Assembly (NCBI RefSeq): GCF_963921235.1
Contig: NC_086108.1
Location: 72,356,001 to 72,420,000, forward strand
Direction: 5' to 3'
Source of the DNA: Mobula hypostoma
Lineage: Eukaryota
DNA: 64,000 bases
The notes beneath the pieces are model-generated. The model worked only from the letters and a program-made list of their open reading frames with translations, had not been told where the DNA came from and did not search any database. The position numbers were made by a program, and so were the translations under genes. Numbering within the stretch: the first letter of the stretch is position 1; the number at the start of each line of letters is the position of its first letter. Below are positions 1 through 56,758 of the stretch, piece after piece.

Positions 1-59
1 GAAAAGAGTACAGTCTACATTTCAGACCGAGACCCTTCAGCAGGACTGGAGGAAGAAAA

Positions 60-554: not shown

Positions 555-894
555 TGTGACGTTTTGTGCATGGGCGTGGTCGACAGCCTGCCCCTGCATT
601 TCTAATGACCAGCACTGTTTACTGTTCTTGTGTTAAAATGCTTTTGTGAGATTACAGTGGGAAGTTCCAGTTAATTTATTGTTACATAGTGTTATATAGT
701 TATTTGCTTGTGTATTTGTGGGTCACCCTGACTGTAACCGGGGTGTGTGATGGTCACCTCCCCCGTCTGTGTGAGACTGGTTGGGTTTACTCTCTGGGTC
801 ATGGTGCCCAGTCTGTTTTGTGTCTATCACAATAAAACCATTGTTGAGTGAAAGAGCTTCCCCGTCTGTCATTATGGACCAAATGCTCGCCACA
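555..894 (+). mobile_element. Solo LTR (Gypsy-like)
   Basis: Begins TGTGACG and ends CGCCACA (short inverted termini, 6/7 match); AATAAA at 831-836; flanks ACAT/ATAT resemble a 4-bp TSD with one change. Confidence 0.55.
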
Positions 895-993
895 ATATAC
901 TGTTTAAAAGGGTAGGTCTGGTTCTTGAGTTGAGATTACAAATTGGAGAAAGACCAATTTTGATGGTATCAGAAAGGATCTGGAAAATGTGGA

Positions 994-5036: not shown

Positions 5037-5567
5037 CTCACAAGGTATTCCCTTGGACCTTGTGGAAAGCAAGTGCAGATATTGCAGGGGCCCCAGCAGA
5101 GATATTAAAAACATCTTTAGCCATGGGTGAGGTGCCGGAGGATTGGAAGATAGGCAATGTTGTTCTGTTGTTTAAGAAGCCTATAAGAATAAGCCAGGAA
5201 ATTATAGACTGGTGAGCCATCAGTACTGGGAAAGTTTGGAAGGTATTCTAAGGAAGCGGGTTTTGATAGACAGGGACTGATTAGGGATAGTACCATGCAC
5301 AAAGCCATGTTGACTATCCCTAATCAGTCCCTGTCTATCAAAACCCGCTTCCTTAGAATACCTTCCAAACTTTCCCAGTACTGATGGCTCACCAGTCTAT
5401 AATTTCCTGGCTTATTCTTATAGGCTTCTTAAACAACAGAACAACATTGCCTATCTTCCAATCCTCCGGCACCTCACCCATGGCTAAAGATGTTTTTAAT
5501 ATCTCTGCTGGGGCCCCTGCAATATCTGCACTTGCTTTCCACAAGGTCCAAGGGAATACCTTGTGAG
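5037..5567. repeat. Long inverted repeat: 255-bp arms (5037-5291, 5313-5567), 21-nt spacer
   Basis: Arms are reverse complements with no mismatch noticed; the ORF track reports identical peptides on opposite strands (5038..5220 minus, 5384..5566 plus). Confidence 0.95.
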
Positions 5568-6743: not shown

Positions 6744-9700
6744 ACAGATCCATAATTGCTTGAAAGTGGTGTCATAGGTAGATAGGATTATAAAGAAAGC
6801 GTTTGGCACATTGGCCTTCATAAATCAATGTATTGAGACAGGAGTTGGGATGTTATGTTGTCATTGTATAAAATGTTGTTGAGAACTAATTTGGAGTATT
6901 GTGTGCAGTTTTCGTCACCTATCTCCAGGAAAGATGAAAATTGGATGAAAGAGTACAGAGAAAATTTACAAGAATGTTGCCAGGACCTGAAGACCTGAGT
7001 TATAGGGAAAGGTTGGATAAGTTATGATTTTATTCATTAGAACATAGAAAATTGAGGGGAGATTTGATAGAGGTATACAACATTATGAGGGTATAGATAG
7101 AACCTGCAAGCACGGTGGGCGAGACTACAACTAGAGATCATGAGTTAAGAGTGAAAGGTGAAATGTTTAAGGTGAACATGAGGGGCAACTTCTCCACTCA
7201 GAGGGTGTGAATGTGTGGAATGAGCTGCTAGCGCAAGTGACGGATGTGGGGCCGACTTGTACACTTAAGAGAAAATTGAAGAGGTACGTGGATGAGAAGG
7301 GTGTCGAGGGCTATAGTCCAGGTGTAGGTCAATGGGACTAAAAAGTTTAATGGGTCGGTACAGACTAGATGAGCTTAGGGGCCTTTTTCTGTGCTGTAGT
7401 GTTCTATGACTCTACTGCCCATTGTATGAAAGTAGGATCTGAAAGGTGTAATACCTGTTCTACTTGTTACCCAGTCTGGCAACCAAGGATTCACATCTGA
7501 GCTACATACATTTATTTTTGAGTGCAATAATTGAAAGCTTCTTCACCAAGGTGACATAGGCTTACTTACACCAAATTTATTTGTGAAAGCAAACGATGCT
7601 CATTATAAGCTTCATCTAATTCCTGTCAGTTCTTCAACCACAATTAAGGAAAACTCACTCTTGCCGTAATCACCCTGAACCTAATTGGTTGTTTGCATAG
7701 TAACATTTAGAACAGGTGTAGGTGACCTTAAGCACAAATGATTTTCTAGCATGTGTTATTCATTAATTTGAGTCAAAACATAACTAGATGTATTTAGATG
7801 GATAATTCCCATATTTCAAGTTTTCTATGGCATTTACCTGGTCTACCGTCTGCTCATTAATACGCGATCCGGCCTACAGAGGCAAAAAGGTTGCCTACCC
7901 CTGATTTGGAATGTTAGGCAGCATCTGTGGAGACAGAGGGTTAATATTCCGGGGCCGACTGAGTGATTTCCACATTTTGTGTTTTTATTTGAGATACACA
8001 GCATCTGAAGTACTTTCATATTTACATAAACAGTTTAAGCTCAATGAGCCATTTTTGTGCAGTTTATTCTGTCTTTGTATTTGTATACTGTATGTGGGGG
8101 GGAGGATGAAAGATAATACGGGAAATACTTTGTATCCTTTTCAACTTTGAGGATTTGTCTGCCAAACTGTCAAGCAAGGTGCCATTTTATGCTTTTTAAG
8201 CTTCCAGGCTTCCAAATGCCATAAAGCTCAGAATCGCCCCAATCATAATCATAACGTTCTTAAACACAAAAGGCTTTGCAGAAGTTAGAAATCCAGAGCA
8301 ACATACAAAATGCTGAAGGAACTTGGCAGCTCAGGCAGAATCTATCAAGGGGAATTGATGTTTCAGGCCAAGACCCATAATCAGGACTACTTTCCCTATC
8401 TAACAGGACATCTTGGAGTGATAACTCTTGAAATCAATATCATAATATTTTAAATCTTACCATAATATTGAAGGTTTTAGCAAAAACATGCCTGCCTTTC
8501 AAGATTGTGAAAAATGAAGGAATATAATTTGGACTAAAATTACATTGTAACTTTCAAACTGCAGTTCAACTAGCTCAGTGTAGAAAACATATATATCAAT
8601 TCTTCAGACCACAAACATAAGACTGCTTGCCAATTGAGCTGTTTTATATGATTTCCAACAAAAATAAAACAACACATCTTCTGACAAGTGTTGGAGATTT
8701 AGCGAACCCTTATACCATGGCAGGTAATTCATCACAAGCATGAGAGAGTTTCAAGATATAATGGAAATTGATTCCAGTCATACTAGATCAAATGTAATGT
8801 GATCAAGTGTATTATTGTTAACTCCACCAATTATTAACCAGTTTACCTAGTTATCTGCTGTTTGGTCTTGAAAGGGAAACAGAAAACGAAGAACAAAAAT
8901 TATTGTGCTTCTTGGCTTGAAAAAGTATTTTCAGGGGTTATACTGAATGACCCAAACAAGAAGTTCTGAAAATTACATTAACACAATTTTGCGCATATTT
9001 TAGTGGCTGTTGCAACATCCTCTCTTCATCTTCCAGCAAGATTTTCATGTTCTGGTTTGCAACTTCATGAAAGACATTGTCAGTTGGGCAACAGTCACAA
9101 TTCATTATGAATGAGGTTCTCACCCATCCTAGTCTGGAAAGTGACCATGACAATGAAAAGTGAGCATTAAACTACCTTTGGAATGCTGCTTAAAATCTGC
9201 ATTCATAAGCAGACAACTGCACAGTGCCCTGCAGACTGACTGTCCACTCACACAGCAGAATAAGCCATCCTGGCACATTCAAATGCTGTTTCTCAAGCTC
9301 TACTGACTTTTGGGAAATGGTCTTGCCCAGGCCTCCCTGCTGCACAGCATGGAGCTGCAACTGAGACCTGTAAGGCACCAGAGGCACTCATGCAGACCAT
9401 GTTACAGAAATGTACAGCATCCACGCTTTATCCATCCATGAATTAGAGGGAGTCATAGTCAGGATCAAATTTATTTATCACATGTATATTGAAACATGCA
9501 GTGAAGTGCATCATTTGCATTAACAACCAACATGCAAAGATGTGATGGGGGCAGCCCACAAGTGTCACTACACATTCCAGTGCCAACATATTGTAGAATG
9601 TGCATCATGCTGGGCAGAACAACACAACAACGTACGCCCTGTTCCTCCCTCCTACACACCAATGCACAATAGTTTTGTCAACGGGGAGCAGACAGCGAGC

Positions 9701-15406: not shown

Positions 15407-15823
15407 AAAGACAAGAGGTCCTGCAGATGAGTAAATAGTCAACAGTTGGGGCCGAAACTCTTCATCGGGACTGGAAAGGAAAGGGTGGGGGGGGGGGGGA
15501 GGAGAGATGCCAGAATAAGAAGGCAGGGAGAGGGGGAAAGGGTAATCTAGAAGATGATAGCTGAAGCCAAGGTGAATGGGTGAGGGGGTTGAAGTAAGAA
15601 GCTGGGCAGTGATAAGTGGCAAATGTAAAGGGCTGGCAAAGAAGGGGTCTGATACCTATCACCTTCTTGCTTGTCCTCCTCCCCCTACCCCTACCTTCTG
15701 GCATCTTCCCCCTTTCTTTCCAGTCCTGACGGATGGTCTTGGCCCAAAATGTTAACTGCTTATTCATTTCCATAGATGCTGCCTGGCCTGTCGAGTTCCT
15801 CCAGCATTCTGTGTGTGTGTTGA
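15407..15823. mobile_element. PLE-derived fold-back mini-element (two opposed terminal fragments)
   Basis: Purine-rich half then pyrimidine-rich half, each with a degenerate hammerhead motif; 13-bp TSD TCATTTAATTAAT at 15394-15406 and 15824-15836. Confidence 0.75.
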
Positions 15824-15929
15824 TCATTTAATTAATGTTCATGAAAAAAATTGCTATAAAATATTAGTAGGTAGTTATTTTTAAAATTCAATATTGTAGC
15901 ACAGTTTGTCTATATGAGGTACCAGCAAG

Positions 15930-16509: not shown

Positions 16510-16634
16510 TCAGGGTCTGAAACCGACAGAAGAGATGCCTGAGCCTGCGAAATCGGCTCCGAAGAAGAGTCTTTGGCGAGGAGGCTGACAGAGGGGACTA
16601 CGCCACAGTTGGAGAGGGTGAGAAGTGGTGAAGA

Positions 16635-17562
16635 GATGACCGCTGGGCTGATTCAGTGTGCTGCGTGCATGATGTGGGAGGTCAGGGACACTGATAGTGC
16701 CTCTGGCTCCTACACCTGTGGAAAATGTTTCCAGATTCAGCTTCTGAAGGACCATGTTGCAGCACTGGAGAGGCAACTGGATGACCTTAGGTTCATCTGG
16801 GAAAATGAGACTTTTCCGGACAGGACCTACAGTGAGGTTGTTACACCAAGGATACCGGAAGAGAGAAGGGGGGCGACAATGAGCAAGGAAAGGATGCTTG
16901 ACGTACAGGAGACCCCGGGGGATGTGCCTCTCGTAAACTGGTTCACCCTCTTGGAAGCTGTCGGGACAAAAGATGATGCCAGCCTGAAAGGCGGTCAGGT
17001 CTGAGAGTCAACAATTGGCGCTGAAGCAAAGCCGAGGAGACAGACGTCAGGCAGAGCCGTGGTAGTAGGGGACTCCATAGTGAGAGGTACAGAAAGGGGT
17101 TTCCGTGGCAACAGGTGAGATTTAAGGATGGTGTGTTGCCTCCCTGGTGCCGGGATCCAGAATGTCACAGACCGATTGCAGGGAATCCTCAAGAGTGAAG
17201 GTGAACATCCGGAAGTGGTGGTGCATGTCGGCACAAATGACATGGGGAAGAAGAGGAAAGACATTCTACAGCGTGACGTCAGAGAACTCGGAAGAAGGCT
17301 GAAAAGCAGGACTTCCAGGGTGGTTATCTCCGGTTTGCTTCCAGTTCCCCGTGCTAGAGTAGGCAAGAACAGGGAGATAATGGATCTGAATGTGTGGCTG
17401 AGGAACTGGTGCAGGAAGCAAGGATTTACATTCTTGGACCACTGGGGTATGTTTCAGGGTGAGGATGAATTGTACAAAAAGGACGGGTTGCACCTTAATA
17501 AGTGGAGAAGCAGCATTCTGGCAGGCAGGTTTGCCTCTACAACACGGGTGTGTTTAAACTAA
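16635..17562 (+). pseudogene. CR1 ORF1 (zinc finger/leucine zipper + SGNH esterase) with two in-frame stops
   Basis: ORFs 16573..17004 and 17128..17562 share a frame; TGA at 17002-17004 and 17116-17118. Confidence 0.85.
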
Positions 17563-17614
17563 GTAGTGGGGGGAGGGGACAAACTGGAAATATAAGGATG
17601 GAGATAAAGGGAAA

Positions 17615-20525
17615 GTGAGAATAAGAAAAGTTCAGAAAGACAACAGAATCAACAGAGCAGAAAGCTCAAGAAGGGATCGTACAGTATGGCCAAGTGAAAT
17701 AGGAATTGATATGGGAGGTGAGGGGAATAATGAATTAAAAGTATTATATACAAATGCACGGAGTATAAGAAATAAAGTGGATGAGCTTGAGGCACAGTTG
17801 GAAATTGGTAAGTATGATGTTGTGGGAATAACAGAGACATGGCTTCAAGTGGACAGGGCCTGGGAAATGAATATTCAAGGTTATACATCCTATCGAAAGG
17901 ACAGAATGATGGGCAGAGGGAGTGGGGTGGCTCTGTTGGTGAGGAATGATATTCAGTCCCTTGCGAGGGGGGCCATAGAATCAGGAGACGTAGAGTCAGT
18001 ATGGATAGAACTGAGAAATTCTAAGGGTAGAAAGACCCTAATGGGAGTTATCTACAGGCCCCCAAACAGTAGTCTGGATGTAGGGTGTAAGTTGAATCAA
18101 GAGTTAAAATTGGCATGTCGCAAAGGTAATGCTACAGTTGTTATGGGGGACTTCAACATGCGGGTAGGCTGGAGGAATCAGGTTGGTACTGGACCCCAAG
18201 AAAGGGAGTTTGTGGAGTCCCTCCGAGATGGATTCTTAGAACAGCTTGTACTGGAGCCTACCAGAGAGAAGGCAATTCTAGATTTAGTGTTGTGCGATGA
18301 ACCGGATTTGATCAGGGACCTCGAGGTAAAGGAGCCATTAGGAGGTAGTGACCATAATATGATAAGTTTTAATCTACAATTTGAGAGGGAGAAGGGAAAC
18401 TCAGAAGTGTCAGTATTACAGTTGAACAAAGGGAACTATGGTGCTATGAGGGAGGAGCTGGCCAAAGTTCAATGGAACAATACCCTAGCAGGGATGACAG
18501 TGGAACAGCAATGGCAAGCGTTTCTGGGAATAATGCGGAAGGTGCAGGATCAGTTCATTCCAAAGAGGAAGAAAGATCCTAAGGGAAGTAAGGGGAGGCA
18601 GTGGCTGACAAGAGAAGTAATGGACAGTATAAAAATAAAAGAGGAGAAGTATAACATAGCAAAGACGAGTGGGAAGCCGGAGGATTGGGAAACTTTTAAA
18701 GAGCAACAGAAGGTAACTAAAAAGGCAATACACGGAGAAAAAATGAGATATGAAGGTAAACTAGCCCAGAATACAAAGGAGGATAGTAAAAGCTTCTTTA
18801 GATATGTGAAAAGGAAAAAAAATAGTTAAGACCAAAATCGGGCCCTTGAAGACAGAAGCGGGTGAATTTATTAATGGGGAACAAGGAAATGGCAGACGAG
18901 TTGAACAGGTACTTTGAATCTGTCTTCACTAGGGAAGACACAAACAATCTCCCAGATATAATAGTGGTCAAAGGACCTGGGGTAATGGATGAATTGAACG
19001 AAATTTAGTTAGGCAGGAAATGGTGTTGGATAGGCTGTTGGGTCTGAAGGCTGATAAGTCCCCGAGACCTGATGGTCTGCATCCTAGGGTACTTAAGGAG
19101 GTAGCTTTAGAAATCGTGGATGCATCGGTAATCATTTTCCAATGTTCTATAGATTCAGGATCAGTTCCTGTGGTTTGGAGCGTGGCTAATGTTGTCCCTC
19201 TCTTCAAGAAGGGAGGAAGAAAGAAAACAGGGAATTATAGACCAGTTAGCCTGGCATCGGTGGTGGGAAAGATGCTGGAGTCAATTATAAAAGATGAAAT
19301 TACGACAAATCTGGATAGCAGTAACAGGATCGGTCTGAGTCAGCATGGATTTACGAAGGGGAAATCGTGCTTGACTAATCTTCTGGAATTTTTTGTGGAT
19401 GTAACTATGAAAATGGACAAGGGAAAGCCAGTGGATGTAGTGTACCTGGATTTTCAGAAAGCCTTTGATAAAGACCCACATAAGAGATTAGTGGGCAAAA
19501 TTAGGGCACATGGTAATGGAGGCAGAGTACTGACATGGATTGAAAATTGGCTGGCTGACAGAAAACAAAGAGTAGCGATTAACGGGTCCCTTTCGGAATG
19601 GCAGGCGGTGACCAGTGGGGTAGCGCAGGGTTCAGTGCTGGGACCGCAGCTGTTTACAATATATATTAATGATTTAGATGAGGGAATTAAAAGTAACATT
19701 AGCAAATTTGCAGATGACACAAAGCTGGGTGGTAGTGTGAAATGTGAGGAGGATGTTATAAGAATGCAGGGTGACTTGGACAGGCTGGGTGAGTGGGCAG
19801 ATGCATGGCAGATGCAGTTTAATGTGGATAAATGTGAGGTTATCCACTTTGGTGGTAAGAACAGGAAGGCAGATTATTATCTAAATGGAGTCCAGTTAGG
19901 AAAAGGAGAAGTACAACGAGATCTAGGTGTTCTTGTACATCAGTCACTGAAAGCAAGCATGCAAGTACAGCAGGCAGTGAAGAAAGCTAATGACATGCAG
20001 GCCTTCATAACAAGGGTAATTGAGTATAAGAGCAAAGAGGTCCTTCTGCAGCTGTACAGGGCCCTGGTGAGACCACGCCTGGAGTATCGTGTGCAGTTTT
20101 GGTCTCCAAATTTGAGGAAGGATATTCTTGCTATTGAGGGAGTGCAGCGTAGGTTCACAAGGTTAATTCCCGGGATGGTGGGACTGTCATATGTCGAAAG
20201 ATTGGAGCGACTGGGCTTGTATACTCTGGAATTTAGAAGGCTGAGAGGGGATCTTATTGAAACATACAAGATTATTAAGGGATTAGACACACTGGAGGCA
20301 GGAAGCATATTCCCGCTGATGGGTGAGTCCAGAACCAGAGGCCACAGTTTAATAATAGAGGGTAGGCCATTTCGAATGGAGTTGAGGAAAAACTTTTTCA
20401 CCCAGAGAGTGGTGGACATATGCAATGCTCTGCCCCAGAAGGCTGTGGAGGCCAAGTCTGGATGCTTTCAAGAAAGAGATGGATAGAGCTCTTAAAGATA
20501 GCGGAATCAAAGGTTATAGGGATAA
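17615..20525 (+). pseudogene. CR1 ORF2 (APE endonuclease + reverse transcriptase), frameshifted
   Basis: 404-aa and 488-aa ORFs separated by a disrupted zone at ~18820-19010 (A-run slippage, a stop); a further frameshift near 20458. Confidence 0.88.
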
Positions 20526-22144
20526 GGCAGGAACTGGATACTGATAGTGGATGATCAGCCATGATCACAGTGAATGGTGGTGCTGGCTTGAAGGGCCGAA
20601 TGGCCTACTCCTGCACCTACTGTCTATTGTCTTTTGGGTGTGGTCTTTCATTAATTCTATTGTGGTTCTTGGATTTACAGTATGCCCACAAGAAAACGAA
20701 TCTCGGGTTTGTATATGTACTTTGATAATAAATTTGCCTTGAATTTTGAATTAACTTCTAAACAATAATGTTTACTGACTAGATTTAATTAATTTAAATG
20801 TACCATTTTTGCATAGGAGCCATCCTGGATGATTTGCCATCATTTGGTCAGTGCAATTACCACTCAAAAACTGTTTAGCTGTAACCTTTTGAAGGAATGA
20901 TCAATTTAGCTGCATTGATCATTTGAAGACAGCCCTAACTAATGGCTGCAACTAAAATCCATTGTTCTTTACAACATATGTTATGTGCCAAGGAGTTGAG
21001 AAATAAATTATTTGCACTTTATATTGTTTTCACAAGGCAATTGACAGTCAATAAAATATTCATGAAGTTTGCTCACTGTTGTAATGAATGTAAACACAGA
21101 CTCAGGTCTCACCAACAGCAATAAAACAAAGGCTCCACATAGTGACACAGCAACTTCCAGCCAGAATTGGTATGATTGCGTAATCATGCTCACAACCCCA
21201 AATCTGCTGCTGGTATTGCTGTAAATCACCGATTTTATCCAACCACCCTCCACTCAATGTATTGCAACTGAAATCACAAAATAAAGAAACCGCAAGTGCT
21301 GGAAATCCCTCTCGGTAGAGTCAACATCTTTGTGAAGAGTTTTCGGATCAGAGAACCTTAGTCAGAACTAGCAAAACTAAGATGAAGTAAGGTATTTTTT
21401 AAGTTGCAGAAAAGCTACCAGTCAGAATGCACATAACAAAGGGAATATCCATAATCAGTGGAGACCAGGTAAAATGATTAATAATGCAATTAATAGAACA
21501 TAGAACATAGAATAGTACCGCACAGTACAGGGCCTTCAGCCCACAATGTTGTGCCGACCATCAAACCCTGCCTCCTATATAAACCCCCACTTTAAATTCC
21601 TCCATATACCTGTCTAGTAGTCTCTTAAACTTCACTAGTGTTTCTGCCTCCACCACTGACTCAGGCTGTGCATTCCACGCACCAACCACTCTCTGAGTAA
21701 AAAACCTCCCTGTAATATCCCCCTTGAAATTCCCACCCCTTACCTTAAAGCCATGTCCTCTTGTATTGAGCAGTGGTGCCCTGGGGAAGAGGCACTGGCT
21801 ATCCACTCTATCTACTCCTCTTATTATCTTATACATCTCCATCATGTCTCCTCTCATCCTCCTTCTCTCCAAAGAGTAAAGCCCTAGCTCCCTTAATCTC
21901 TGATCATAATGCATACTCTCTAAACCAGGCAGCATCCTGGTAAATCTCCTCTGTACCCTTTCCAATGCTTCCACATCCTTCCTATAGTGAGGTGACCAGA
22001 ACTGGACACAGTACTCCAAGTGTGGCCTAACCAGAGTTTTATAGAGCTGACAACAGGAATTCTGCAGATGCTGGAAATTCAAGCAACACACATCAAAGTT
22101 GCTGGTGAACGCAGCAGGCCAAGCAGCATCTGTAGGAAGAGGTG

Positions 22145-22182
22145 CAGTCAACGTTTCAGGCCGAGACCCTTCGTCAGGACTA
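22145..22182 (-). ncRNA. Minimal type I hammerhead ribozyme motif (intact core)
   Basis: Minus strand reads uaguc-CUGACGA-a-gggucucggccu-GAAAC-GUU-gacug: stem I, catalytic core, stem II and palindromic ACGU stem III. Confidence 0.75.
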
Positions 22183-22192
22183 ACCCTGACAT

Positions 22193-22230
22193 TAGTACTG
22201 ACGAAGGGTCTCGGCCTGAAACGTCGACTG
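22193..22230 (+). ncRNA. Minimal type I hammerhead ribozyme motif (GUC cleavage triplet)
   Basis: uagua-CUGACGA-a-gggucucggccu-GAAAC-GUC-gacug; one mismatch at the innermost stem I pair. Confidence 0.7.
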
Positions 22231-23867
22231 CACCTCTTCCTACAGATGCTGCTTGGCCTGCTGCGTTCACCAGCAACTTTGATGTGTGTTGCTTTTATAG
22301 AGCTGCATCGTTACATCGCGACTCTTAAACTCTATTCCTCGACTTATGAAAGCTAACACCCCATAAGCTTTCTTAACTACCCTATCTACCTATGAGGCAA
22401 CTTTCAGGGATCTGTGGACAGGTACCCCCAGATCCCTCTGCTCCTTCACACTACCAAGAATCCTGCCATTTACTTTGTACTCTGCCTTGGAGTTTGTCCT
22501 TCCAAAGTGTACCACCTCACACTTCTCCGGGTTGAACTCCATTTGCCACTCTCAGCCCACTTCTGCATCCTATCAATGTCTCTCTGCAATCTTTGACAAT
22601 CCTCTACACTATCCACAACACCACCAACCTTTGCATTGTCTGCAAACTTGCCAACCCACCCTTCTACCCCCACATCCAGGTCGTTAATAAAAATCACGAA
22701 AAGTAGAGGTCCCAGAACAGATCCTTGTAGGACACCACTAGTCACAATCCTCCAATCTGAATGTACTCCCTCCACCACCACCCTCTGCCTTCTGCAGGCA
22801 AGTCAATTCTGAATCCACCTGGCCAAACTTCCCTGGATCCCATGCCTTCTGACTTTCTGAATAAGGCTACCATGTGGAACCTTATCAAATGTCTTACTTA
22901 AATCTATATAGATCACATCCACTGCACTACCCTCATCTATATGCCTGGTCACCTCCTCAAAGAACTCTATCAGGCTTGTTAGACACGATCTGCCCTTCAC
23001 AAAGCCATGCTGGCTGTCCCTGATCAGACCATGACTCTCTAAATGCCCAGAGATCCTATCTCTAAGAATCTTTTCCAACAGCTTTCCCACCACAGATGTA
23101 AGGCTCACTGGTCTATAATTACCCGGACTATCCCTACTACCTTTTTTGAACAAGGGGACAACATTCACCTCCCTCCAATCCTCTGGTACCATTCCTGTGG
23201 ACAACGAGGACATAAAGATCCTAGCCAGAGGCTCAGCAATTTCTTCCCTCACCTCATGGAGCAGCCTGGGGAATATTCCATCAGGTCCCGGGGACTTATC
23301 CATCCTAATGTATTTTAACAACTCCAACACCTCCTCTCCCTTAATATCAACATGCTCCAGAACATCAACCTCAGTCATATTGTCCTCACCATCATCAAGT
23401 TCCCTCTCATTGGTGGATACCAAAGAGAAGTATTCATTGAGGACCTTGCTCACTTCCACAGCCTCCAGGCACATCTTCCCACCTTTATCTCTAATCGGTC
23501 CTACCTTCACTCCTGTCATCCTTTTTTTCTTCACATAATTGAAGAATGCCTTGGGGTTTTCCTTTACCCTACTCACCAAGGCCTTCTCATGCCCCCTTCT
23601 TGCTCTTCTCAGCCCCTTCTTAGTCTCCTTTCTTGCTTCCCTATATTCCTCAATAGACCCATCTGATCCTTGCTTCCTAAACCTCATGTATGCTGCCTTC
23701 TTCCACCTGACTAGATTTTCCACCTCACTTGTCACCCATGGTTCCTTCACCCTCCCATTCTTTATCCTCCTCACTGGGACAAATTTATCCCTAACATCCT
23801 GCAAGAGCTCTCTAAACATCGATCGGAGGAAAATTGTGCTCCCCTGATTCTCTGATGAGATCCATGG

Positions 23868-25160
23868 CATAAGGCCATAAGATATAGGAGCCAAATTAGG
23901 CTATTTGGCCCATTAAGTATACTCCACCATTTCATCATGGCTGATCTAATTTTTCTCTCAGCCTCAGTCTCTAGCATTCTCCCTATATCCCCTCATGCCC
24001 TGACTAATCAAGAATCTATCAACATTAAATATACATAAGGACTTGGCCTCTACTGCTGCCTGTGGAAAAGCATTCCACAGATTCACCACTCTCTGGTCAA
24101 AGAAATTCCTCCTCATCTCTGTTCTAAAAGGACGTCCCTCTATTCTGAGGCTGTGTGCTCTGGTCTTAGACACTCCCACCATAGGAAACATCCTCTTCAC
24201 ATCCACTCTGTTAAGGCCTTTCACCATTCGTTAGGTTTCAGTGAGGTCTCATTCTTCTGAATTCTAGTGAACGCAGGCCCAGAGCCATCAAACACTCTTT
24301 ATATGACAAGCCATTCAATCCTGGAATCATTTTCATAAACTTCCTTTGAACCTCTCCAAGTTCAACTCATTCTTTCTAAGATAAGGGCCCAGAACTGCTT
24401 ACAATACTCTCAAAGAGGCCTCACCAGGGCTTTATAAAATCTCAAAATTATAGTCTTGCTTTTATATCCTAGTCCTCTTGAAATGAAGGCTAACATCACG
24501 TTTGACTTCCTCACCACAGACTTAACTTGCAAATTAACCTTTAGGGAATCCTGCACAAAGACTCCCAAATTCCATTGTACCTCATTTTTTTTTTGTATTT
24601 TCTCTTCATTCAGAAAATTTCTGCTACCAAAGTGCATGAGCATACCTTACCTGACATTGTATCCCATCTACCATTTCTTTGCCCTATTTTACTAATCTAA
24701 GTCCTCCTCTAGCCTCTCTACATCTTCAAAACTACCTGCCCCTCCACCTATCTTCATATCCTCTGCAAACTTTTCAACAAAGCCATCAATTCCATCATCG
24801 AAATCATTGACATATAACATAAAAAGAATCGGTTCCAACACAGACCCCTGTGGAACACCACTGGTCACTGGCAGCCAGTCAGAAAAGGCTCTCTTTATTC
24901 ACAATCTTTGCCTCCTGCCAATCAGCCACTTTTTATCCATGCTAGAATCTTTCCAGTAATACCATAGCTTGTTAAGCAGCCTCATGCGTGGCACCATGTC
25001 AAAGGCCTTCTGAAATTCCAAGTACACAACATCAGCAGATTCTCCTTTGTCTATCCAGATTGTTATCTCTTCAAAGAATTCCAATAGAATTGTCAGGCAA
25101 GATTTTCCCTTGAGGAAACCATGCTGACTACTGCTTATTTTATCATGTGCCTCCAAGTAC
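23868..25160 (-). mobile_element. CR1 LINE 3' part
   Basis: QHGFLKGKSCLTILLEFFEE and RNFFDQRVVNLWN fragments; CATAAGGCCATAAGATA tail. Confidence 0.88.
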
Positions 25161-28790: not shown

Positions 28791-29869
28791 TCTAAGACCT
28801 CCTTTAAAATGTATCTTTTCATTTAAATATTTAACACCTCCACACTAGCTCCTTTTTCTTGAAGATTTTATATAATGGGCAGACACTCAAATTGGCAAGA
28901 CTAGTGTTTCTTAAACAGTGTCAGAGCCATTAAAGTTCACTGTATTTACAACTGACAGAAGCACTGCATCAATCTTTGCATGGACAAGGTAATGGTCAAT
29001 GTTGTAAGCACTGTGAATCAAAGCATTAAAACACAAGGAGCTATCAATCAGTCGTGAAAAGACAAGAATGAAGCAAATGGATTTTTGCTTGGAACTTAGC
29101 AGATATAAATGATAAAAAGATGGAAACAAAAGTAAGACAGAGGTTTTGGAGTCCAGGTACTTTAATCATTAAAATATAATGTAAAGGCACAGAATATAAT
29201 TAAAAAGGCTAACAGAGTGCAAGGCTCTATTAGCAGAACTCTGGAATTCACAAAGGTAGAAGTTACACTGAATCAGCTGGTTATATCACACCTCAAGTAT
29301 CATGAGCACCAACTACTTGGAAGATGTCATAGATGTTACAAAATGATATCTGGAGTCTGAGCTAAACTGTAAGAACAGTTACTGAAACTAGATACTCCCT
29401 GAAAATTAGAAGTTTCGTGTTTTCAATGTAAATTCAGATGGTAGATGGAAACAAAACTATTTTTGCTACTAATAGAGTCCAGGGCCTAGGACATGAGCCA
29501 AATTTGGATCCTGACTTCTCAAGAGTGAATAAATTTAGGAAGGTACTTCTTTATGTAAAGGATGCTGGAATTTTCTACGAAGAGATATTAAGTTGACTGG
29601 TAATTTTAAATTGGATACTGCTAGAGTTTTGTTAGCCACAGTTTTTAAGAGCAGTTGGACAGATGAAAGGGATATTGAGTTGTCTTGCAGCTTAGCCACT
29701 TACAGGAGGCAAGCTGCATCATGTGTACATTCATTTATACCCGCAGTGATGACAAAGAAAATGTGGCCGATGTATACAGGGGCACCTGTGTCTCGGATTG
29801 TAAAGCAGAATGTTATAAAAGGAAAGAAGAGAACATAATTGCCTGAAAACAAATATCATGCAAATCAAA

Positions 29870-31235
29870 AACGAGAGAAAATCTGCAAATGCTGGAAATC
29901 CAAGCAACATACACAAAATGCAGGAGGAACTCAGCAGGCCAGGCAGCATCTCTGGAAAACAGTACAGTCAATGTTTCGGGCCGAGACCCTTCATCAGGAC
30001 TGGAGAAAAAAAGATGAGGAGTCAGAGTAAGAAAGTGGAGACAGCTTAACTACTGACGTCTATTATAAACCCATTGACTCTCACAGCTACCTGGACTATA
30101 CCTCTTCCCACCCTGTTACTTGTAAAAATTTCATCTGCTTCTCTCAATTCCTCCATCTCTGCTGCATCAGCTTCAAAGACAGGGTGACAGGGGCTTCTCT
30201 TCCTCCATCATCAACAATGCGCTCACCCGCATCTTTTCCATTTCACACGCACTTACACTCACCCCGTCCTCCTGCCGCTGTACCAGGGATAGGGTTCCTC
30301 TTGTTCTCACTGACCAGCCTCCATGTCCAGCACACAATTTTCTGTAGCTTCCTCCATCTCCAATGGGATCCCACCACCAAGCACATCTTTCCCTGCCCCC
30401 CCCCACTTCCTGTCTATTCGTCCCTCCCCACTGATCTCCCTCCTGGCACTTATCCTTGCAAGTGGAACAAGTGCTAAACCTGCCCCTACACCTCCTTCCT
30501 CACTACTATCCAGGGCCCCAAGCAGTCTTTGCAGGTGAAGCAACACTTCACCTGTGAGTCTGTCGGGGTCATCTACTGTATCTGGTGCTCCCGATGTGGC
30601 ATCCTGTATATCGGTGAGACCCAACGTAGTTTGGGAGACCGCTTTGCCGAGCACCTACGCTGCATCTGCCAGAAAAAACAGGAACTCCCGGTGGCCATCC
30701 ATTTTAATTCCATTTCTCATTCCCATTCTAATATGTCAGTACATGGCCTCCTCTACTGTCGCGATGAGGCGACATTCAGGTTGGAGGAGCAACATCTTAT
30801 GTTCTGTTTGGGTAGCCCCAACTTGATGGCATGAACACCGATTTCTCAAACTTCTGGTAATTGCCCCAACCCCCTTCACCATCTCCTATTCCCATTTCCC
30901 TCTCTCACTCTTATCACCTTACATGCCCAGCACCTCTCTCTGGTGCTCCTCCCTCTTTTCTTTCTTCCATGGCCTTCTATCCTCTCCTATCTGATTTCCA
31001 CTCCTCCAGCCCTGTATCTCTTTCATCAATCAAATTCCCAGATCTTTACCTCATCCCTCCCAATCCAGGTTCACCTATCACCCTGTGTTTTTTCCTCCCC
31101 CCCCCCACCTTCTTACACTGCCTCCTCCCATCTTAGTTTCTCCAATCCTAATAAAGCAGCTTGAAATGTTGACTACTCTTTTTCATAGATGCTGCCTAGC
31201 CTGCTGAGTTCCTCCAGCATTTTGTGTGTGTTGCT
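29870..31235 (+). mobile_element. Penelope-like element (probably Neptune clade), 5'-truncated, with inverted terminal repeat at its 5' end
   Basis: RT thumb remnant TDVYYKP.DSHSYLDYTSSHP; Cys linker GTYPCKWNKC*TCP; GIY-YIG endonuclease VIYCIWCSRCGILYIGET...RFAEH. Terminal repeat inverted at ~29870-30040 and direct at ~31135-31235. Confidence 0.88.
29965..30002 (-). ncRNA. Minimal hammerhead ribozyme motif in the inverted PLE terminal repeat
   Basis: caguc-CUGAUGA-a-gggucucggccc-GAAAC-AUU-gacug; perfect stem I, stem II with one U-G pair; stem III ACGU changed to ACAU, consistent with CpG decay. Confidence 0.7.
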
Positions 31236-31649
31236 AACATTGCAAATGTTAGAACCTGAAATAACTATAATTCCTTTTAGTGTTAAAAACAGAAATACTG
31301 AAAGAATTCAATCAGCCAAAAGCATCTGTGGAAAGAGAAACCAGGCAACAATTCTGTCAGCAATATTTCCTCAGAACTGGGGGAATAATAGAGTATAAAA
31401 AACAAAGTGCTGGGAGAACTTAGTAGTCCAAACAGCAGCTGTACTGGTAAAGGGATCAAGGGAGGGTAAGAGGCCTGGTAGGGGTGGCTGTGAGTTATTT
31501 CAGGGGAACTAGAAATACTGGGGACAGATAGGAGTGTCATCAGGTGAGGGTTCATGGCCAAAGCAATAGAAGAAGAACTTGGCATAATCTGGGGCCAGAG
31601 TTCATTGAGGTGCAGACATAAGAGTACTGTTCTCATGTATCTAAGGTCT

Positions 31650-35807: not shown

Positions 35808-36375
35808 CAACCACAAACCAGAGAAAATCTGCAGATGGTGGAAATCAAAGTAATAATCACGACATGCTGGAGGAACTCAGAAGACCACGCAGGGTCTATG
35901 GAAAAGAGTAAACAGTCGATGTTTCAGGCTGAGTCCCTTCATCGGGACTGGAAAAAATAGATTAGAAGTCAGAGTAAGAAGGTGGGGGGAGGAGAGGAAG
36001 AAGGACAAGGTAGAAGGTGATAGGTGAAACCAGGAAAGGAGGAGGGTTGAAATAAAGAGCTGGGAAGTCAATTGGTGAGTGAGATAAAGGACTGGAGAAG
36101 GAGGAACCTTACAGGAGAGGACAGAAGTCCATAGAAGAAAGAAAAGGGGAGGAGCGCCAAAGGAAGGTGATAGGCAGATATGGAGATAAGATGAAAGAGG
36201 GAAATGGGAATGGGGGATGGTGAGGGATGGGGGGACATTACTGAAAGTTCAAGAAATCAATGTTCATGCCATCAGGCTGGAAGTTAACCAGATGGAATAT
36301 AATGTGTTGCTCCTCCAACCTGAGTGTGGCCTCATCGTGGCAGTAGAAGAGGCCATGGACTGATATGTTGTAATA
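35808..36375 (-). mobile_element. PLE 3' fragment with terminal repeat
   Basis: Endonuclease C-terminal remnant (HGLFYCHDEATLRLEEQH), purine-rich tail, mutated hammerhead at 35913-35950; 11-bp TSD ATAAGTTTGGT at 35797-35807 and 36376-36386. Confidence 0.8.
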
Positions 36376-40148: not shown

Positions 40149-41768
40149 CCACCATTTAATCCAAATCCCCAGTTACATCTTTTTGCAAAATTATCCCTGT
40201 TCCATCTTTCCCAACTAACCTGCCTTATCTTAAGACCATATTACCTGCAATATACACCTTCCAGTCAGGCTCAGTCACTTCAAAGACAACTATACTGTAA
40301 CATTGAAACTAAGTTTGTGCTATCTTACTTATCAAAACACACATACCCAAAATGCTGGAGGAACTCAGCAGGTCAGGCAATATCTATGTAAATGAATAAA
40401 CAGTCGCCGTTTCGGGCTGAGGCCTTTCATTAGGACTGGTCAATGGAAGTGAATGAATGATCCTCCAACAGTTTGTGTATGTTTTTGCTCCAGATTTCCA
40501 GCATCTGCAGAATCTTAATTCATTTCTTATCTACTTGCACCTTTGTTGGGGCAACTGTTAATGCATAAAGAACTCAGTTCTTTTTTGCACAGTTTTTAAA
40601 TATTGAAGAGATTTCTCCAATATTGGTAAACCACCATTGCCCTTACCCTTCAGCCCTCACCAAATTCCCTTCCCACCCCTTACACTTTAATCTGCACTTC
40701 TATTATTGCTATGATTATTTCAGTGCACTGCTGTAATAAATTGGTCTGTATGAATGGTATTTCGCTGTACATGTGACAATAACACACCAATATACCAATT
40801 TCAATTTATACCTCATAAAATTCAATTAGCTCTTTCAAATTACATTTTCAAACTAATCTCATTAAACCCTTTTATAAGGTTGTAGTTCGTTTGTCAATTA
40901 CTGTGAAGAGCATGTTGTTTAAATATTAAACCAAAATTGGTTTCGGTGTAGCGAGGATCTAATCTTTCCATTCTGTTCCATCCTTCCAGTCACTCACTGC
41001 CAATCTAATCATAACTAGTCTGAATACTGGCCCAATCTATACTTATGGGAATAATCCAGAGACAGCAATCTTAGAGATATTGTTGTACAGGACAGCAGCC
41101 CATCTTATCCATGTTAACAACGTGATACCTACTGTATCTACACAAATCCTAATTGCCTGCATTAGGCCCATATCCCTTCACCTATTCCCTATTGAAAAGC
41201 CTGTCCAAGAGCCTTTTAACGACTGTAATTGTACCCACCCAAACACTTCCTCTGGCACCTTATTCCATACAATCATCACCCTACATGTAAAAAAATGATC
41301 TGATACTCAGATCAACTTCAAATTCTCCCCCTCACCTTAAACCTATACTTCCTACCTTTAGTCTCCCCTTTCTTGGTAAAAATGCAAACTATTTCCCCTA
41401 TTCATGCCCTCATAATTTTATAAATCACAATATGATCATCCCTCAGGCTCCTACATCCAGTGAGAAAAGTTATTAGCCTATCCATACTCTCCTTATAAAG
41501 TAAAAGGCCTCCATTCCAGGCACCATCTTGAAAATTTACTTTTTGATTAGATCCTATGTCATTGATTTCATTTGAAATTATGATCTTTGACCACTTGATC
41601 AGAACTTTTTAAAAAATGCTTGTTGTTGCTGAACCCTGTTATCTCGGAGGTAATATGCCATTTGGGGTTTTGAATCATGTATACAAATATCTTTTCCTGA
41701 GAGAATCCCTTACAGTCACAACTCACCTATCCTTCCTATCACTGCTGTTTCCCTCATGATAACTCTTA

Positions 41769-45329: not shown

Positions 45330-47750
45330 GACACAAGAGGTACTGCAGTTGCAGGAAATCTAGAGCAATATACACAATGTGCTGAAGGAGCTCAGCAGGT
45401 CAGGCAATGGATGGGAATAAACAATTTACATTTTGAGCTGAAACCCTTCATTAGGACTAGAAAAGAAGGGGGAAGAAGGCAGAGTAAGATGGTGGGGGGA
45501 GGGGGCAGAAGTAAAGGTGGCAGGTGATAGGTGAAACTGGGATTGGGGAAGGGGGTGGAGTGAAGTACTGGGAAGTTGCTTGGTGGAAGAGATAAAGGGC
45601 CAAAGAAGGAGGAATCTGATAGGAGAGGACAGAAGACCATGGAGGAAATGGAAAGGAGAGGAGCAACAGGGAGAGGTGATGGGCAAGTAAACGAAAAGGT
45701 GTGAGAGGTAAACAAGAATGGAGAATAGTGAAGGAGAGGATGGGGTCAATTATCAGAGGTTCGAGAAATCATTGTTCATGCTATCAGGTTGAAGGCTACC
45801 CAGATGGACTAGAAGGTGTTGTTCCTCCAACCTGAGTGTGGCCTCATCACGGCAGTAGAGGAGGCCATGGACTGACATGTTGAAATGGGAATGGGAAGTA
45901 GAATTGAAATGGGTGGCCACTGAGAAATTCTGCTTTTTGTGGTGGACAGTGTGAAGGTGCTTGATGAAGTGGTCTCCCAATCTATGTCATGTCTCACCAA
46001 TATGCAAGAGGTCACACCAGGAACACTGGATACAGTAGATGACCCTAACAGACTTGCTGATGAAGTGTCACCTTACCTAGAAGGATGGTTTGGGTCCCTG
46101 AGCGGTAATGAGGGAGGAGGGGTAGGTGCAGGTGTGGGGCTTGTTCGGCTTGCAAGGGTAAGTTCCAGGAGGGAGATCAATGGGGAGGGACAGGTGGACA
46201 AGGGAGTCACACAGAGAGGGATCCCGCAGAAAGTGGTAGTTGGGGGAAGGGAAAGCTGTGCTTGGTGGTGTGATCCTGTTAGAGATGGCAGAAGTTACAG
46301 AGCATTATGTGCTGGATGCGAAGACTGATAGGGTGGTAGGCGAGGACAAGAAGAACAGGATCCCTGGTGTGGAGGCAGGAGTATGGGGTGGGGGTGGATG
46401 TGTATGAAATGGAAGAGATGCAGGGGAGGGCAGCATTGATGGTGGAGAAAGGGAAGTCCCTTTCTTTGAAGAAGGGAAACATCTGGAATGAGAAGCCTCA
46501 TCCTGTGAACAAATGAAATAGAGACTGAAGAGTGCGAGAAGGGAGTGGCACCTTTACAAGTGACATAGTGGGAAGAGGTAGAGGCAAGAAAGCTGTGAGA
46601 GTCAGTGGGTTTATAAAAGATATCAGTAGATAGACTGTTTCAAGAGATGGAGACAGAGAGATTGAGAAAAGGGAGAGAGGTGTCAGAAATGGACCAAAAA
46701 ATTTGAGGGCAGGGTGAAAGTTGGTGGAAAAGTTGACGAAATTGATGAGTTCAGCATGGGTGCAGGAAGCAGCACAAATGCAATTGTTAAGGCAGTGTAG
46801 GAAGAGTTGGAGAGCATTGTAGACTTGGAAATGGACTGTTCTGCATAGCCAACAAAAAGGCAGGCAAAGCTGGGAACCATGTGAGTGCCCATGGCTATAC
46901 CTTGGGTTCGAAGGGAGGTGCTGAAGGAGAAATTATTGAGGGTGACGACCAGTTCCACAAGACGGAGGAGTGTGGTGATGGAGGGGAACTGGTTCAGTCT
47001 GCTTTCCAGAAAGAAGTGGAGAGCTTTAAGGCCCTCCTGATGGGAGGGAGAGAGCTGTACAGGGACTAGACATCCATAGTGAAAATGAGACAGGGACAGG
47101 GAACTTCAAGTTCTTGAAGAAATTGAGCGCATGTGAATTGTCACAGATTTAGAGCTGAGGTATGCAGACCCGAGTTCAATGGGGCAGAACAATGTTCAGG
47201 TTTATGGATCTTGGGTAGGAGGTAGGAAAGGGAGGTGTGGGTTAAGGAAAGTATGATGTTGGTGGCAATGGATGGGAGATCCCTGGAATTGATGAGGTTG
47301 GTGATGGTGTGGAAGATAACGGCCTGATGCTCCTTAGTAGGGTCCTGTTCAAGGGTTAAGTAAGAGGAGATGTCTGAGAGTTGCCGTCTGGCCTCAGCAA
47401 TGTAGAGGTCAGTCCATCAGACTACTGCAGCACCCGACCCCCCCCCCCCCAGCCCCATCTGCAAGTTTGATGGTGAGACTGGGATTAGTGTGGAGAGAGG
47501 GGAGAGCAGCACGCTCAGGGGGAGTGAGGTTTGAATTGGAGAGAGGAGTGGTAAAATTGAGATGGACGATGTCTCATTGGCAGTTAGACATAAAAAGATC
47601 CAGAGCAGGGTATCCAAGAAGAGTAGGAGGGTTGAAGATGGGAGAAGGGGTCATTGGTGCAGGCTAGAGAGTCCTTGCCAAAGAAGTAGACACAGAGATG
47701 GAGGTTTGTTATCGTCCATTACTGATAAGTGAGAAGAGCCTTATGGGGGT
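45330..47750 (-). mobile_element. Penelope-like element, longer copy (RT + GIY-YIG), degraded
   Basis: Minus ORFs LNNFSF...QGIAMGT...PSFACLFVGY (PLE RT), FFKERDFP, GDHFIKHL...VATHFN...EATLRLEEQH; terminal repeat at ~45330-45460. Confidence 0.88.
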
Positions 47751-49886: not shown

Positions 49887-50181
49887 TAGGATTACTAGAA
49901 GGACTTGAACCGGATGGATTCCGCTTGATTAGCATCTGTCCGAAGCAGAAAAAGCCACACAGCCAGCACACTTCGTGAAGTTTCACGGTGTCACGCAACT
50001 TGGGTGCCAGCTCTGTCGAAGTGTGGGGAATGGAAACTGCAGCAGGCGAAACAGCGGGCATTTCACACAGGGGGAATTAACAGGGTTTTGGCATTGACCT
50101 TGAGTCGGTGCTCGTCCTCAGGAGCTGCCACCATCTCTTATTTTTTAGACAGAGCATTTACTTCCTTCAGCCATACCAAAA
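49887..50181 (+). other. Putative 5' UTR portion of the ATG-containing exon
   Basis: Begins after the pyrimidine tract and CAG acceptor; contains short upstream ORFs; contiguous with the CDS at 50182. Confidence 0.45.
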
Positions 50182-50506
50182 ATGTGCACCGAGGGTTTCC
50201 AATACCGGGCTCTGTTTGAGTACAAGAAGGAGCGAGAAGAAGATATCAACCTATTGCCGGGTGACCTGCTCACCGTTAGCAAGTCGGTGCTGCTGACTGC
50301 CAATTATCAAGAAGGAGATGAGAAAAATCCCAAAGGGTGGCTAAATGGAGTTAACGAAAGAAATAAGGACAAAGGAGACTTCCCTGGGACCTATGTCGAG
50401 TTCGTTGGACCGATTCGAATTGTGCCTCCAACTCCCAAGCCAAGACCGAGACCTGTTCCTCCTACCCCCAGCGGCTCGGCAGCGGCCAGTCCGGTCCCAC
50501 TTTCTG
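50182..50506 (+). CDS. PIK3R3: First coding exon of a class IA PI3K regulatory subunit (p85-type SH3 domain + proline-rich linker); probably the long SH3-containing isoform of PIK3R3, paralogue assignment less certain than family
   Basis: Translation MCTEGFQYRALFEYKKEREEDINLLPGDLLTV...GWLNGVNERNKDKGDFPGTYVEFVGP...PPTPKPRPRPVPPTP matches the p85 N-terminal SH3 (EGxQYRALY..., GDFPGTYVE) and PxxP linker. Consensus donor CTG|GTAGGT after 50506 gives a 325-nt, phase-1 exon, the phase I recall for the p85alpha/beta equivalent exon. The ORF-track extension to 50550 is intronic read-through. Confidence 0.88.
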
Positions 50507-55662: not shown

Positions 55663-56578
55663 TTAGCTTGCTGACACAAGTATATGCATCAAATGCTTTT
55701 TCTGGTAAATTTAAAGGTAGACTTTATAATCAACTAAAGTACTGCCAAGTGTTTAGTTCCTTTCAACTAAGTCAGCATCGACAATATGTTCCGTAGAGGA
55801 AAGAGGGGCATGAATGAACTAATATAGGGGAAGAACCATATGGTATTAACTGAATTGGTGGAGGTAAAAGTAAACAGGTTGAATTAACACAGAGGTAGAA
55901 GAGTTCTTGTATAAACTGTGAAGGTGGGAGTAGTGTTACAGTGAAAATGTGAGGGTTTGAAGGAGATACTAGCCTCCTTTTCTCTCAGGTGCTTTTGGAA
56001 CTAGAGTGTTGAAGACAAAATCAGGATAGAGAAAGTTAACCACTGAACTTGTTGACATTCCAAATGTATTTTAATCTTTTTTAAAAAAACTATTAGTCAT
56101 AATATAAACAAACGCTGAGAAGTTCCTAGATATGCTATTTTTATTAACTTCGGACCTTCAATTATTTTATTAACCCTTCAGAGTTTTGGAATATTTATGA
56201 TGATGCAAGTGAAGAAATTTATGTATATCTATATACAAAATTATGTATAGGTACTTGTCTTTAATGTAAGAGCTGTCTTTAAACTGTTGGCTGCTTGATT
56301 GCCCTAACAGTTTCACTTGCAGAAGATATGAAATTGGCCCTTGTTCATTTTTCTGGATTGCAGCTCCTAACAGTTGACTTTTGAGGATGTGGAAAGATCT
56401 ATGCAAGTAGTTTTTATGGAAGAGGAGCAACAAAAGAAACATCTCTTCTTTCTCATTTATTCTACACTTGTTTGCAAAATGACGTCGGAATGTTTTTGAA
56501 AGATCGTATATGTGTCGGAATTCAAGATTGTTTATTGTCATTCTTCAGTAAACGAGTGTAGAGGAGAATGAAATGATT

Positions 56579-56758
56579 GTTGCCACACACACAAAATACT
56601 GGAGGAACTCAGCAGGCCAGGCAGCATCTATGGAAAAAAGTACAGTTGACGTTTTGGGCCGAAACCCTTCAGCAGGACCAGTAAAAAAAGATGAGCTCTT
56701 CCAGTATTTTGTGTGTATTGCTTGGATTTCCAGCATCTGCAGATTTTCTCTTGTTTGT
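56579..56758. mobile_element. PLE-derived fold-back mini-element
   Basis: Opposed terminal-repeat pieces; 13-bp TSD GAATGAAATGATT at 56566-56578 and 56759-56771. Confidence 0.78.

Follow-up and report, generated by a model that had tools for sequence, protein, structure and literature searches.

A candidate minimal hammerhead ribozyme of a Penelope-like element, and a head-to-head insertion carrying two copies of it, in Mobula hypostoma

The window analysed here is a stretch of 64,000 nucleotides of the Mobula hypostoma genome (contig NC_086108.1, positions 72,356,001 to 72,420,000), and at 22050-22292 it holds one head-to-head insertion of 243 bp with a 13-bp target-site duplication (TSD). 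The features of the locus are given below; positions with a sign are counted from C3 of the hammerhead core as 0, with the predicted cut between +27 and +28.

21561..23900, minus strand: decayed LINE interrupted by the insertion (RVT_1 at 22806-23900, E 9e-15)
22037..22049: left copy of the TSD, 13 bp, identical to the 13-mer at 22293-22305
22050..22184, minus strand: long arm of the insertion, a pseudo-LTR with a tail of ~35 nt (97% identity to the genomic copy L189, -7 to +127)
22145..22182, minus strand: intact minimal hammerhead (5-bp stem I, CUGACGA, extra A, 4-bp stem II, GAAA, ACGU, GUU)
22184..22191: head-to-head junction spacer of 8 nt, between the inverted arms
22192..22292, plus strand: short arm of the insertion, a tailless pseudo-LTR (98% identity to L189, -6 to +96; the last 2 letters are common to the TSD)
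22193..22230, plus strand: hammerhead with complete core letters and a GUC triplet but a stem I A.G mismatch, which fails the structural descriptor
22293..22305: right copy of the TSD, 13 bp, matching the left 13-mer

The interrupted LINE is presumably CR1-like, judged by protein likeness. The TSD begins the frame QLYKTLVRPHLEY, as in the LINE frame at 18993-20486; a nearly complete LINE occupies 16543-20486 (+; RVT_1, E 5e-30), and this we also take to be CR1-like, with esterase-like, endonuclease-like and RT frames. A different kind of LINE, decayed but with endonuclease-like and RT frames still recognisable, is present at 852-3816 (+; RVT_1, E 4e-39 at 1557-2780).

The inverted arms (22081-22183 and 22192-22294, 103 nt each, 8 nt apart) are 98% complementary, and folding prediction gives a hairpin of 103 bp with -215.6 kcal/mol and a z-score of -30. 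A transcript of either strand holds one sense and one antisense motif, and therefore the two cannot dimerise in cis; on these predicted structures, both local motifs are likely to be inert passengers. An Rfam scan of the window returned no hammerhead family among its 15 matches at E of at most 5, as is to be expected of a motif without helix III, and the miRNA-like matches at 22132-22243 reflect the inverted repeat. A short inverted duplication within a LINE fragment at 5245-5359 likewise has a miRNA-like hairpin score on both strands, below the gathering score.

An earlier sequence-only reading gave the repeat consensus as caguc-CUGANGA-a-gggucucggccy-GAAAC-GUH-gacug, and descriptor matches and the subfamily alignment bear this out as written. 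Among 148 young, 31 old and 35 unassigned copies, the letters found most often spell the core CUGANGA...GAAA...NUH, and the family majority retains both stems. Stem I has 5 bp in its commonest form (51 of 91 descriptor matches), and the predicted folds place an extra A between 9 and 10.1, followed by a 4-bp helix II; as read from the sequence, the young subfamily also allows an A-U/G-C/G-C register without the extra base. Among 111 distinct 38-mers, 15.2/16.2 is C-G in 88, the remainder being mostly CpG decay, and 10.1/11.1, a conserved G-C pair in the class, is G.U in 76 versus G-C in 28, with G.U typical of the young subfamily and C the majority letter in old copies. The same reading counted three cores as intact (22145-22182, 22193-22230 and 29965-30002), of which one passes the descriptor. 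This sole match in the window, 22145-22182 (-), has a UAGUC/GACUG stem I and a GUU triplet, its predicted cut lies between 22150 and 22149, and its dimer fold has no broken pair. At 22193-22230 (+) all core letters are kept, but A 22197 opposite G 22226 breaks the stem I pair adjoining the core, and at 29965-30002 (-) an A at 29972 (16.2) makes 15.1-16.1 read ACAU, not ACGU, breaking the palindromic stem III.

The young subfamily carries TCAGT at -10 to -6, which we take to be initiator-like. In all subfamilies a pyrimidine tract followed by AG lies just upstream of the motif and overlaps the 5' arm of stem I (e.g. 30002-30020, -); a comparable tract and AG are described at the intron end in Drosophila virilis Penelope (PMC4209133). 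An A at 2.1 was considered as a special junction feature and discarded, being common only in loci fetched with a query that carries it (1 of 30 in an unbiased set).

A profile built from the window's own copy was searched in the window and in 40 arbitrarily placed 10-kb genome stretches (400 kb), giving 23 matches in the window, 81 in the 400 kb and 0 in reversed sequence; 17 of the 23 begin at or within the first 8 model positions. The descriptor requires the core, a stem I of at least 4 bp adjoining it, a stem II of at least 3 bp and self-complementary 15.2/16.2. It finds 11 matches in the 400 kb and 1 in the window, whereas ten shuffles gave none. Taken by itself, the pattern CTGANGA-N(5-30)-GAAAC is weak evidence, with 4 matches in the window versus 1.29 expected, a number reached in 5 of 100 shuffles. 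Covariation of stems I and II, also proposed earlier, gave no compensatory signal: pair changes among the 111 distinct 38-mers are one-sided and compatible with pairing (U.G 56 and C-G 27; G.U 76 and G-C 28), with a two-sided change in 1 of 111 rows, at one pair, in a family too uniform to show more. The missing Rfam match, the lack of covariation and monomer folding z-scores of only -0.5 to -1.6 are what a chance resemblance to a hammerhead would produce, but such a resemblance is scarcely credible given that the core, the two stems, the extra base after A9 and the palindrome are all at the position known for Penelope-like elements (PLEs), and given the 11 descriptor matches against none in shuffles. 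On its sequence we regard the motif as a candidate ribozyme.

Eleven copies in all, intact and mutated, had been listed in the window by the sequence-only reading, each with correct coordinates, but the 23 profile matches show that the list was short. The positions of the copies called mutated also stand, with the reservation that 11-48 and 56643-56680 share the CUGCUGA of an older subfamily with a C at position 6 of the core (A6C), and so are not cases of private decay. Copies outside the insertion at 22050-22292 are as follows.

2..48, minus strand: A6C-core copy at the window edge (profile match)
8278..8388, minus strand: decayed copy (profile match)
15426..15825: head-to-head decayed pair, 15426-15473 (-) and 15721-15825 (+)
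29869..31241: older two-armed insertion (profile matches and reference alignment), with a tailed arm at 29869-30002 (-) whose palindrome is broken, an RT/EN fragment at 30036-30874 (+) and a short arm at 31146-31241 (+)
35814..36368, minus strand: decayed copy with the ORF 3' end upstream at 36245-36368 (profile and reference alignment)
40335..40508: decayed two-armed copy, 40335-40438 (-) and 40459-40508 (+)
45345..47703, minus strand: older 5'-truncated Penelope-like copy, with a body at 45730-47703 (72% to the coding copy L185) and a decayed motif at 45425-45459 after it
56577..56757: older two-armed mini-insertion, with a short arm at 56577-56680 (-) carrying an A6C core and a tailed arm at 56692-56757 (+)

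The window also contains an SH3-domain exon at 50149-50550 (+; Pfam SH3_2, E 3e-6), and the insertion lies 28 kb upstream of it. By its likeness this would be the exon that opens the coding region of a PI3-kinase p85-type regulatory subunit.

Genomic loci with long upstream homology encode reverse transcriptase (RT) and a GIY-YIG endonuclease (EN), and the ORF ends ~300 nt before the motif on the same strand. The identification as the minimal type I hammerhead of Penelope-like elements is thus supported by a pseudo-LTR (pLTR) position and an orientation sense to the RT and GIY-YIG ORF; we looked for motif copies unlinked to a Penelope ORF, and linkage is what was found. The open frame of L185 runs to 856 codons and includes DKG, the CX4CxxC linker and a CxxC within GIY-YIG (motifs read from sequence); Pfam matches to this type of ORF are GIY-YIG (E 9e-4) and RVT_1 (E 0.004), neither of which reaches its curated cut-off. 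The linker that joins RT to EN reads CKRNKCYTC in the frames of L184-L190. A CX2-5CxxC linker is reported to mark Neptune and Nematis and to be absent from Penelope/Poseidon (PMC8557442), and the element appears Neptune-like from its RT-EN linker. The hallmarks of EN+ Penelope-like elements are present, namely pLTRs, an inverted truncated partner, an optional 30-40-bp tail and a TSD.

Of 30 loci retrieved by the 5' part of the ORF, 5 contain the motif a second time, 880-882 nt upstream of the query point, which gives a repeat unit of about 3.5 kb. The ORF frame opens at about +85, and two of the five upstream-motif copies begin at -4/-5. The order within the 3.5 kb is hammerhead, short end (~+94), tail end (~+130), ORF, 300-nt UTR and hammerhead; the hammerhead heads and closes the element, and therefore every copy reaching the motif carries it. 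We are confident that the motif represents the minimal type I hammerhead of a young endonuclease-bearing Penelope-like element, and that the locus at 22050-22292 is a 5'-truncated, head-to-head insertion of that element whose motifs are likely inert.

Genome-wide, an exact 33-mer has 39,061 matches in the 3.48-Gb genome, a degenerate intact 35-mer has 44,943 exact matches and a young-subfamily downstream anchor has 78,402, each with 0 in the reversed control. Extrapolation from the 81 matches in 400 kb gives about 700,000 repeat copies, and from the 11 descriptor matches about 96,000 intact motifs (Poisson range about 48,000-171,000). The very large ribozyme complement that had been proposed is upheld as a count, both by the 44,943 exact matches and by the ~700,000 repeats, but most copies are decayed, 11 of 81 sampled copies passing the descriptor, and solitary, with a same-strand partner within 5 kb for 8 of the first 100 listed intact matches (counted by eye). 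Massive solitary spread of minimal hammerheads is already in print: about 4,000 motifs are reported in coelacanth and 9,000 in Xenopus, most of them single and some in close opposite-strand pairs (PMC4209133). The exact matches here exceed both counts, and copies are near-identical here whereas they are described as highly variable there. Short head-to-tail pLTR duplications are rare (L003:1404-1538; C1:2252496-2252589, in L153), and L003, with two motifs 97 nt apart on one strand, represents the only arrangement able to dimerise in cis.

Many copies are 100-140 bp long, have their own TSD and start at the motif, as would members of an independent non-autonomous retrozyme or SINE family. We consider such a family most improbable, since in the anchored sample 5' ends form an unbroken range reaching as far as 1.9 kb into the ORF, the copies are 92-98% identical to coding elements, and they are dispersed or head-to-head rather than in the tandem arrays typical of retrozymes (bioRxiv 10.64898/2026.07.22.740005); the subfamily alignment showed neither diagnostic changes nor tandem arrays private to the short copies. 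The non-LTR retrozymes described in that preprint are similar in having a type I hammerhead that traces back to a PLE pLTR, and one chondrichthyan genome is reported among their hosts, but they form tandem non-coding arrays, in contrast to the dispersed truncations of a coding element seen here. Identity with them was rejected on the head-to-head pair at the locus, the 8 partnered matches among the first 100 listed, and the continuity with the coding element.

Conservation of the motif can be followed across subfamilies. Within the motif, the majority letters of the old and young subfamilies agree except at N7 and 11.1, but they diverge in the flanks immediately outside, and contigs of four other public runs (which may be DNA) diverge from the young reference at the same two motif edges. 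A block at +46 to +57 downstream is also common to old and young subfamilies, and conservation is therefore not unique to the motif. After insertion there is no sign of selection: among the sequences of 31 old copies, each non-CpG core letter is altered in 1-7 and each non-core letter downstream in 1-10. This near-equality weighs against a large, host-relevant set of functional ribozymes with transcripts genome-wide as their targets, as do the low fraction of copies passing the descriptor, the scarcity of same-strand partners and the lack of in vitro cutting by single motifs in the accessible text of PMC4209133. The numbers of exact and extrapolated intact motifs, and the occurrence of the same block in public contigs of related organisms, would fit such a set, which we nevertheless judge very unlikely.

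A C at position 6 in an otherwise intact motif has 310 genomic matches, with old-type flanks in 16 of 20 examined, and the A6C core is present in 5 of 81 sampled copies and 2 of 23 window copies. An older subfamily was amplified with an A6C core. A6C is a natural hammerhead variant, described as having low Mg2+ activity and a preference for Mn2+ (PMC7151607, PMC3088659). The amplification of a subfamily with a change that strongly lowers Mg2+ activity elsewhere raises the possibility that the motif is kept as a protein-binding or promoter/5'-end structure for which cutting is dispensable. Two further observations agree with this: catalytic mutants are reported to have no effect on insertion in vitro (PMC11167929), and 5' ends cluster upstream of the motif rather than at the cut. 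However, the old and the young subfamily each keep the remaining core letters, the two stems and the palindrome as their majority, with adjacent flanks that differ, A6C occurs naturally in a phage hammerhead that is still active (PMC7151607), and the motif of the Anolis element does cut in the presence of protein (PMC11167929). A purely structural role is thus possible but doubtful.

Predicted energies, which ignore tertiary contacts, favor rod-like misfolds over the hammerhead fold for both monomer (-11.0 versus -7.0 kcal/mol) and dimer (-30.3 versus -11.5 kcal/mol). For single minimal motifs the accessible text of PMC4209133 reports no cutting in vitro, and the class is described as cutting slowly as a dimer (PMC4209133; review PMC6765202). 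In the element described here, two motifs would pair through ACGU only in tandem pLTR-ORF-pLTR transcripts or between two RNAs, and paired motifs would cut slowly after GUC, probably helped by the element's protein. The Anolis motif is reported to cut when protein is added, with uncut RNA as the main substrate, and catalytic mutants did not impair insertion in vitro (PMC11167929).

If the ribozyme cuts in vivo and the cut RNAs are used as templates, insertions should start at the cut site. From 1,494 copies that mismatch at +21 to +24 and match from +36, the 100 listed were tallied by eye, with apparent starts at +25 (18), +26 (2), +27 (5), +28 (19), +29 (2), +30 (5), +31 (2), +32 (8), +33 (11), +34 (15), +35 (4) and +36 (9). 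The excess at exactly +28 over its neighbors from +26 to +31 is in favor of cut templates, and so is the stem I junction of +28 to -4, which occurs 85 times genome-wide versus 36 and 15 for two control junctions. However, +25 and +34 are nearly as frequent in the same 100 listed copies, and 14 of the 19 starts at +28 are accounted for by microhomology or small deletions (7 by stem I complementarity and 7 by other short homologies or deletions), leaving 5 clean; moreover, -4 is itself the commonest start, and 85 events correspond to about 0.1% of the 78,402 young copies. A clear cut-site footprint was thus not found in the 100 listed copies and the junction counts, in which the +28 peak is inseparable from microhomology. 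Templating by cut RNA is unlikely as the source of these starts; the data are a weak hint at most, of about 1% of copies or less, and fit uncut RNA as the main substrate. Five of the 100 listed copies (e.g. L208) have a precise deletion that removes the whole core, running between two GTC triplets, one in stem I and the other the cleavage triplet.

The ends of insertions were analyzed in the first 100 young-anchor matches on the contig C1, all of which were examined. Their 3' ends fall in two classes, near +94 (58) and near +130 (42), and a direct repeat of at least 8 bp is present in 70 of 100 arms, with a mode of 14. Inverted partners accompany 42 insertions, and all 35 classifiable pairs combine one long and one short arm (p 3e-11 versus 0.5; 7 unclassifiable). 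In a second set of 156 other sequences (849 kb), among them this window and loci selected with different patterns, 39 of 39 classifiable pairs again join a tailed to an untailed arm, with 4 unclassifiable; overall, the one-tail pattern is seen in 74 of 74 classifiable two-armed insertions. A remnant of the other arm was sought in single-arm copies, giving two suggestive cases and no pattern.

At the 5' side, 14 of the 100 ends are in +11 to +46, 36 in -20 to +10, 8 in -60 to -21 and 42 further up. The density is 1.75% per nt in -20 to +10, versus 0.42 and 0.44 on either side, with the bin chosen post hoc and paired arms not independent; 12 of 44 single-arm copies also begin in this bin. The likeliest cause of this pile-up at the motif's upstream edge is a transcription start there. 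Splicing was rejected as its cause in the single-arm copies that begin there (TSD callable in 22 of 49), where the TSD abuts the copy or unrelated letters follow, with no shared exon.

A far-reaching account, to which we give about an even chance, is that every two-armed Penelope insertion arises by obligatory paired priming, in which the dimeric RT-endonuclease starts on one target strand at the tail site and on the other at the short site and never uses the same site twice, on an uncut template beginning at the motif's upstream edge, with the A6C lineage indicating that fast cutting is dispensable. In the reading that we prefer, two internal RT start sites would give the short and the tailed 3' ends, and the template would mostly be uncut RNA, both by analogy with the Anolis element (PMC11167929). 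The enzyme would nick both target strands about 13-14 bp apart and prime one cDNA per start site, with one site per nick, to leave a tailed and an untailed arm. Many cDNAs would stop at the motif's upstream edge, probably the RNA 5' end, and tens of thousands of hammerhead-headed copies of 100-140 bp would result. In the literature, the PLE tail is described as optional, or often at one end only (PMC8557442, PMC3846280); it maps between two RT start sites of a protein for which a dimeric form, nicking and extending both strands, is predicted (PMC11167929). An alternative proposal is that priming occurs on an antisense template by the element itself, as self-priming (PMC3846280). The titles and abstract openings searched contained no report of twin priming in Penelope elements.

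The motif shares with the minimal hammerheads of Cervera and De la Pena (2014, PMC4209133) a type I core without helix III, a palindromic 15.2-16.2, an extra base between 9 and 10.1, a helix I of 4-5 bp, the pLTR position, and the occurrence of copies mostly singly with some close opposite-strand pairs. It differs in helix II, which has 4 bp here, with G.U closure in the young subfamily, as compared with 7-8 bp in S. mansoni. That paper reports such motifs in Xena, Poseidon and Neptune elements of fishes, and its accessible text names no cartilaginous fish among the hosts. No paper on the motif in sharks or rays was found by our search, although subscription papers and supplements, which lay outside it, may list the family. 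Our sequence data confirm for a further genome the class known from 2014, and the number of copies exceeds those given there.

The Poseidon element PAc of Anolis carolinensis (Frangieh et al. 2024, PMC11167929) is similar in having a hammerhead at the pLTR-ORF junction, two 3' ends with a 30-40-nt tail between them inside the start of the ORF, and no clear trace of RNA ends at the cut site in the accessible text. By contrast, the element here has the CX2-5CxxC linker that Penelope/Poseidon lack, and its ORF starts about 90-170 nt after the hammerhead core rather than inside stem II. With respect to EN+ PLEs of the Neptune clade (Craig et al. 2021, PMC8557442; Arkhipova et al. 2013, PMC3846280), the single tail is strict here and described as optional there.

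The value of the young family is in its size, with tens of thousands of near-identical insertions whose ends are readable, such that DNA alone may test both the use of two RT start sites per insertion event and whether cut RNA ever serves as template. The leads worth following are the strict one-tail rule and the A6C lineage, and, were obligatory paired priming true, the ~80,000 young copies would be a ready-made record of PLE integration and of the purpose of the ribozyme. Hammerheads of Penelope-like elements with a short stem III reportedly cleave as dimers (Lunse, Weinberg and Breaker), and by the title of that work the motif class and the dimer mechanism are the same. Finally, we note two insertions with unlike 3' flanks, C1:400678 (L110) and C1:1823859 (L141), whose inversion junctions are identical (-797 to about -2622), which would fit the copying of an inverted structure as a unit.
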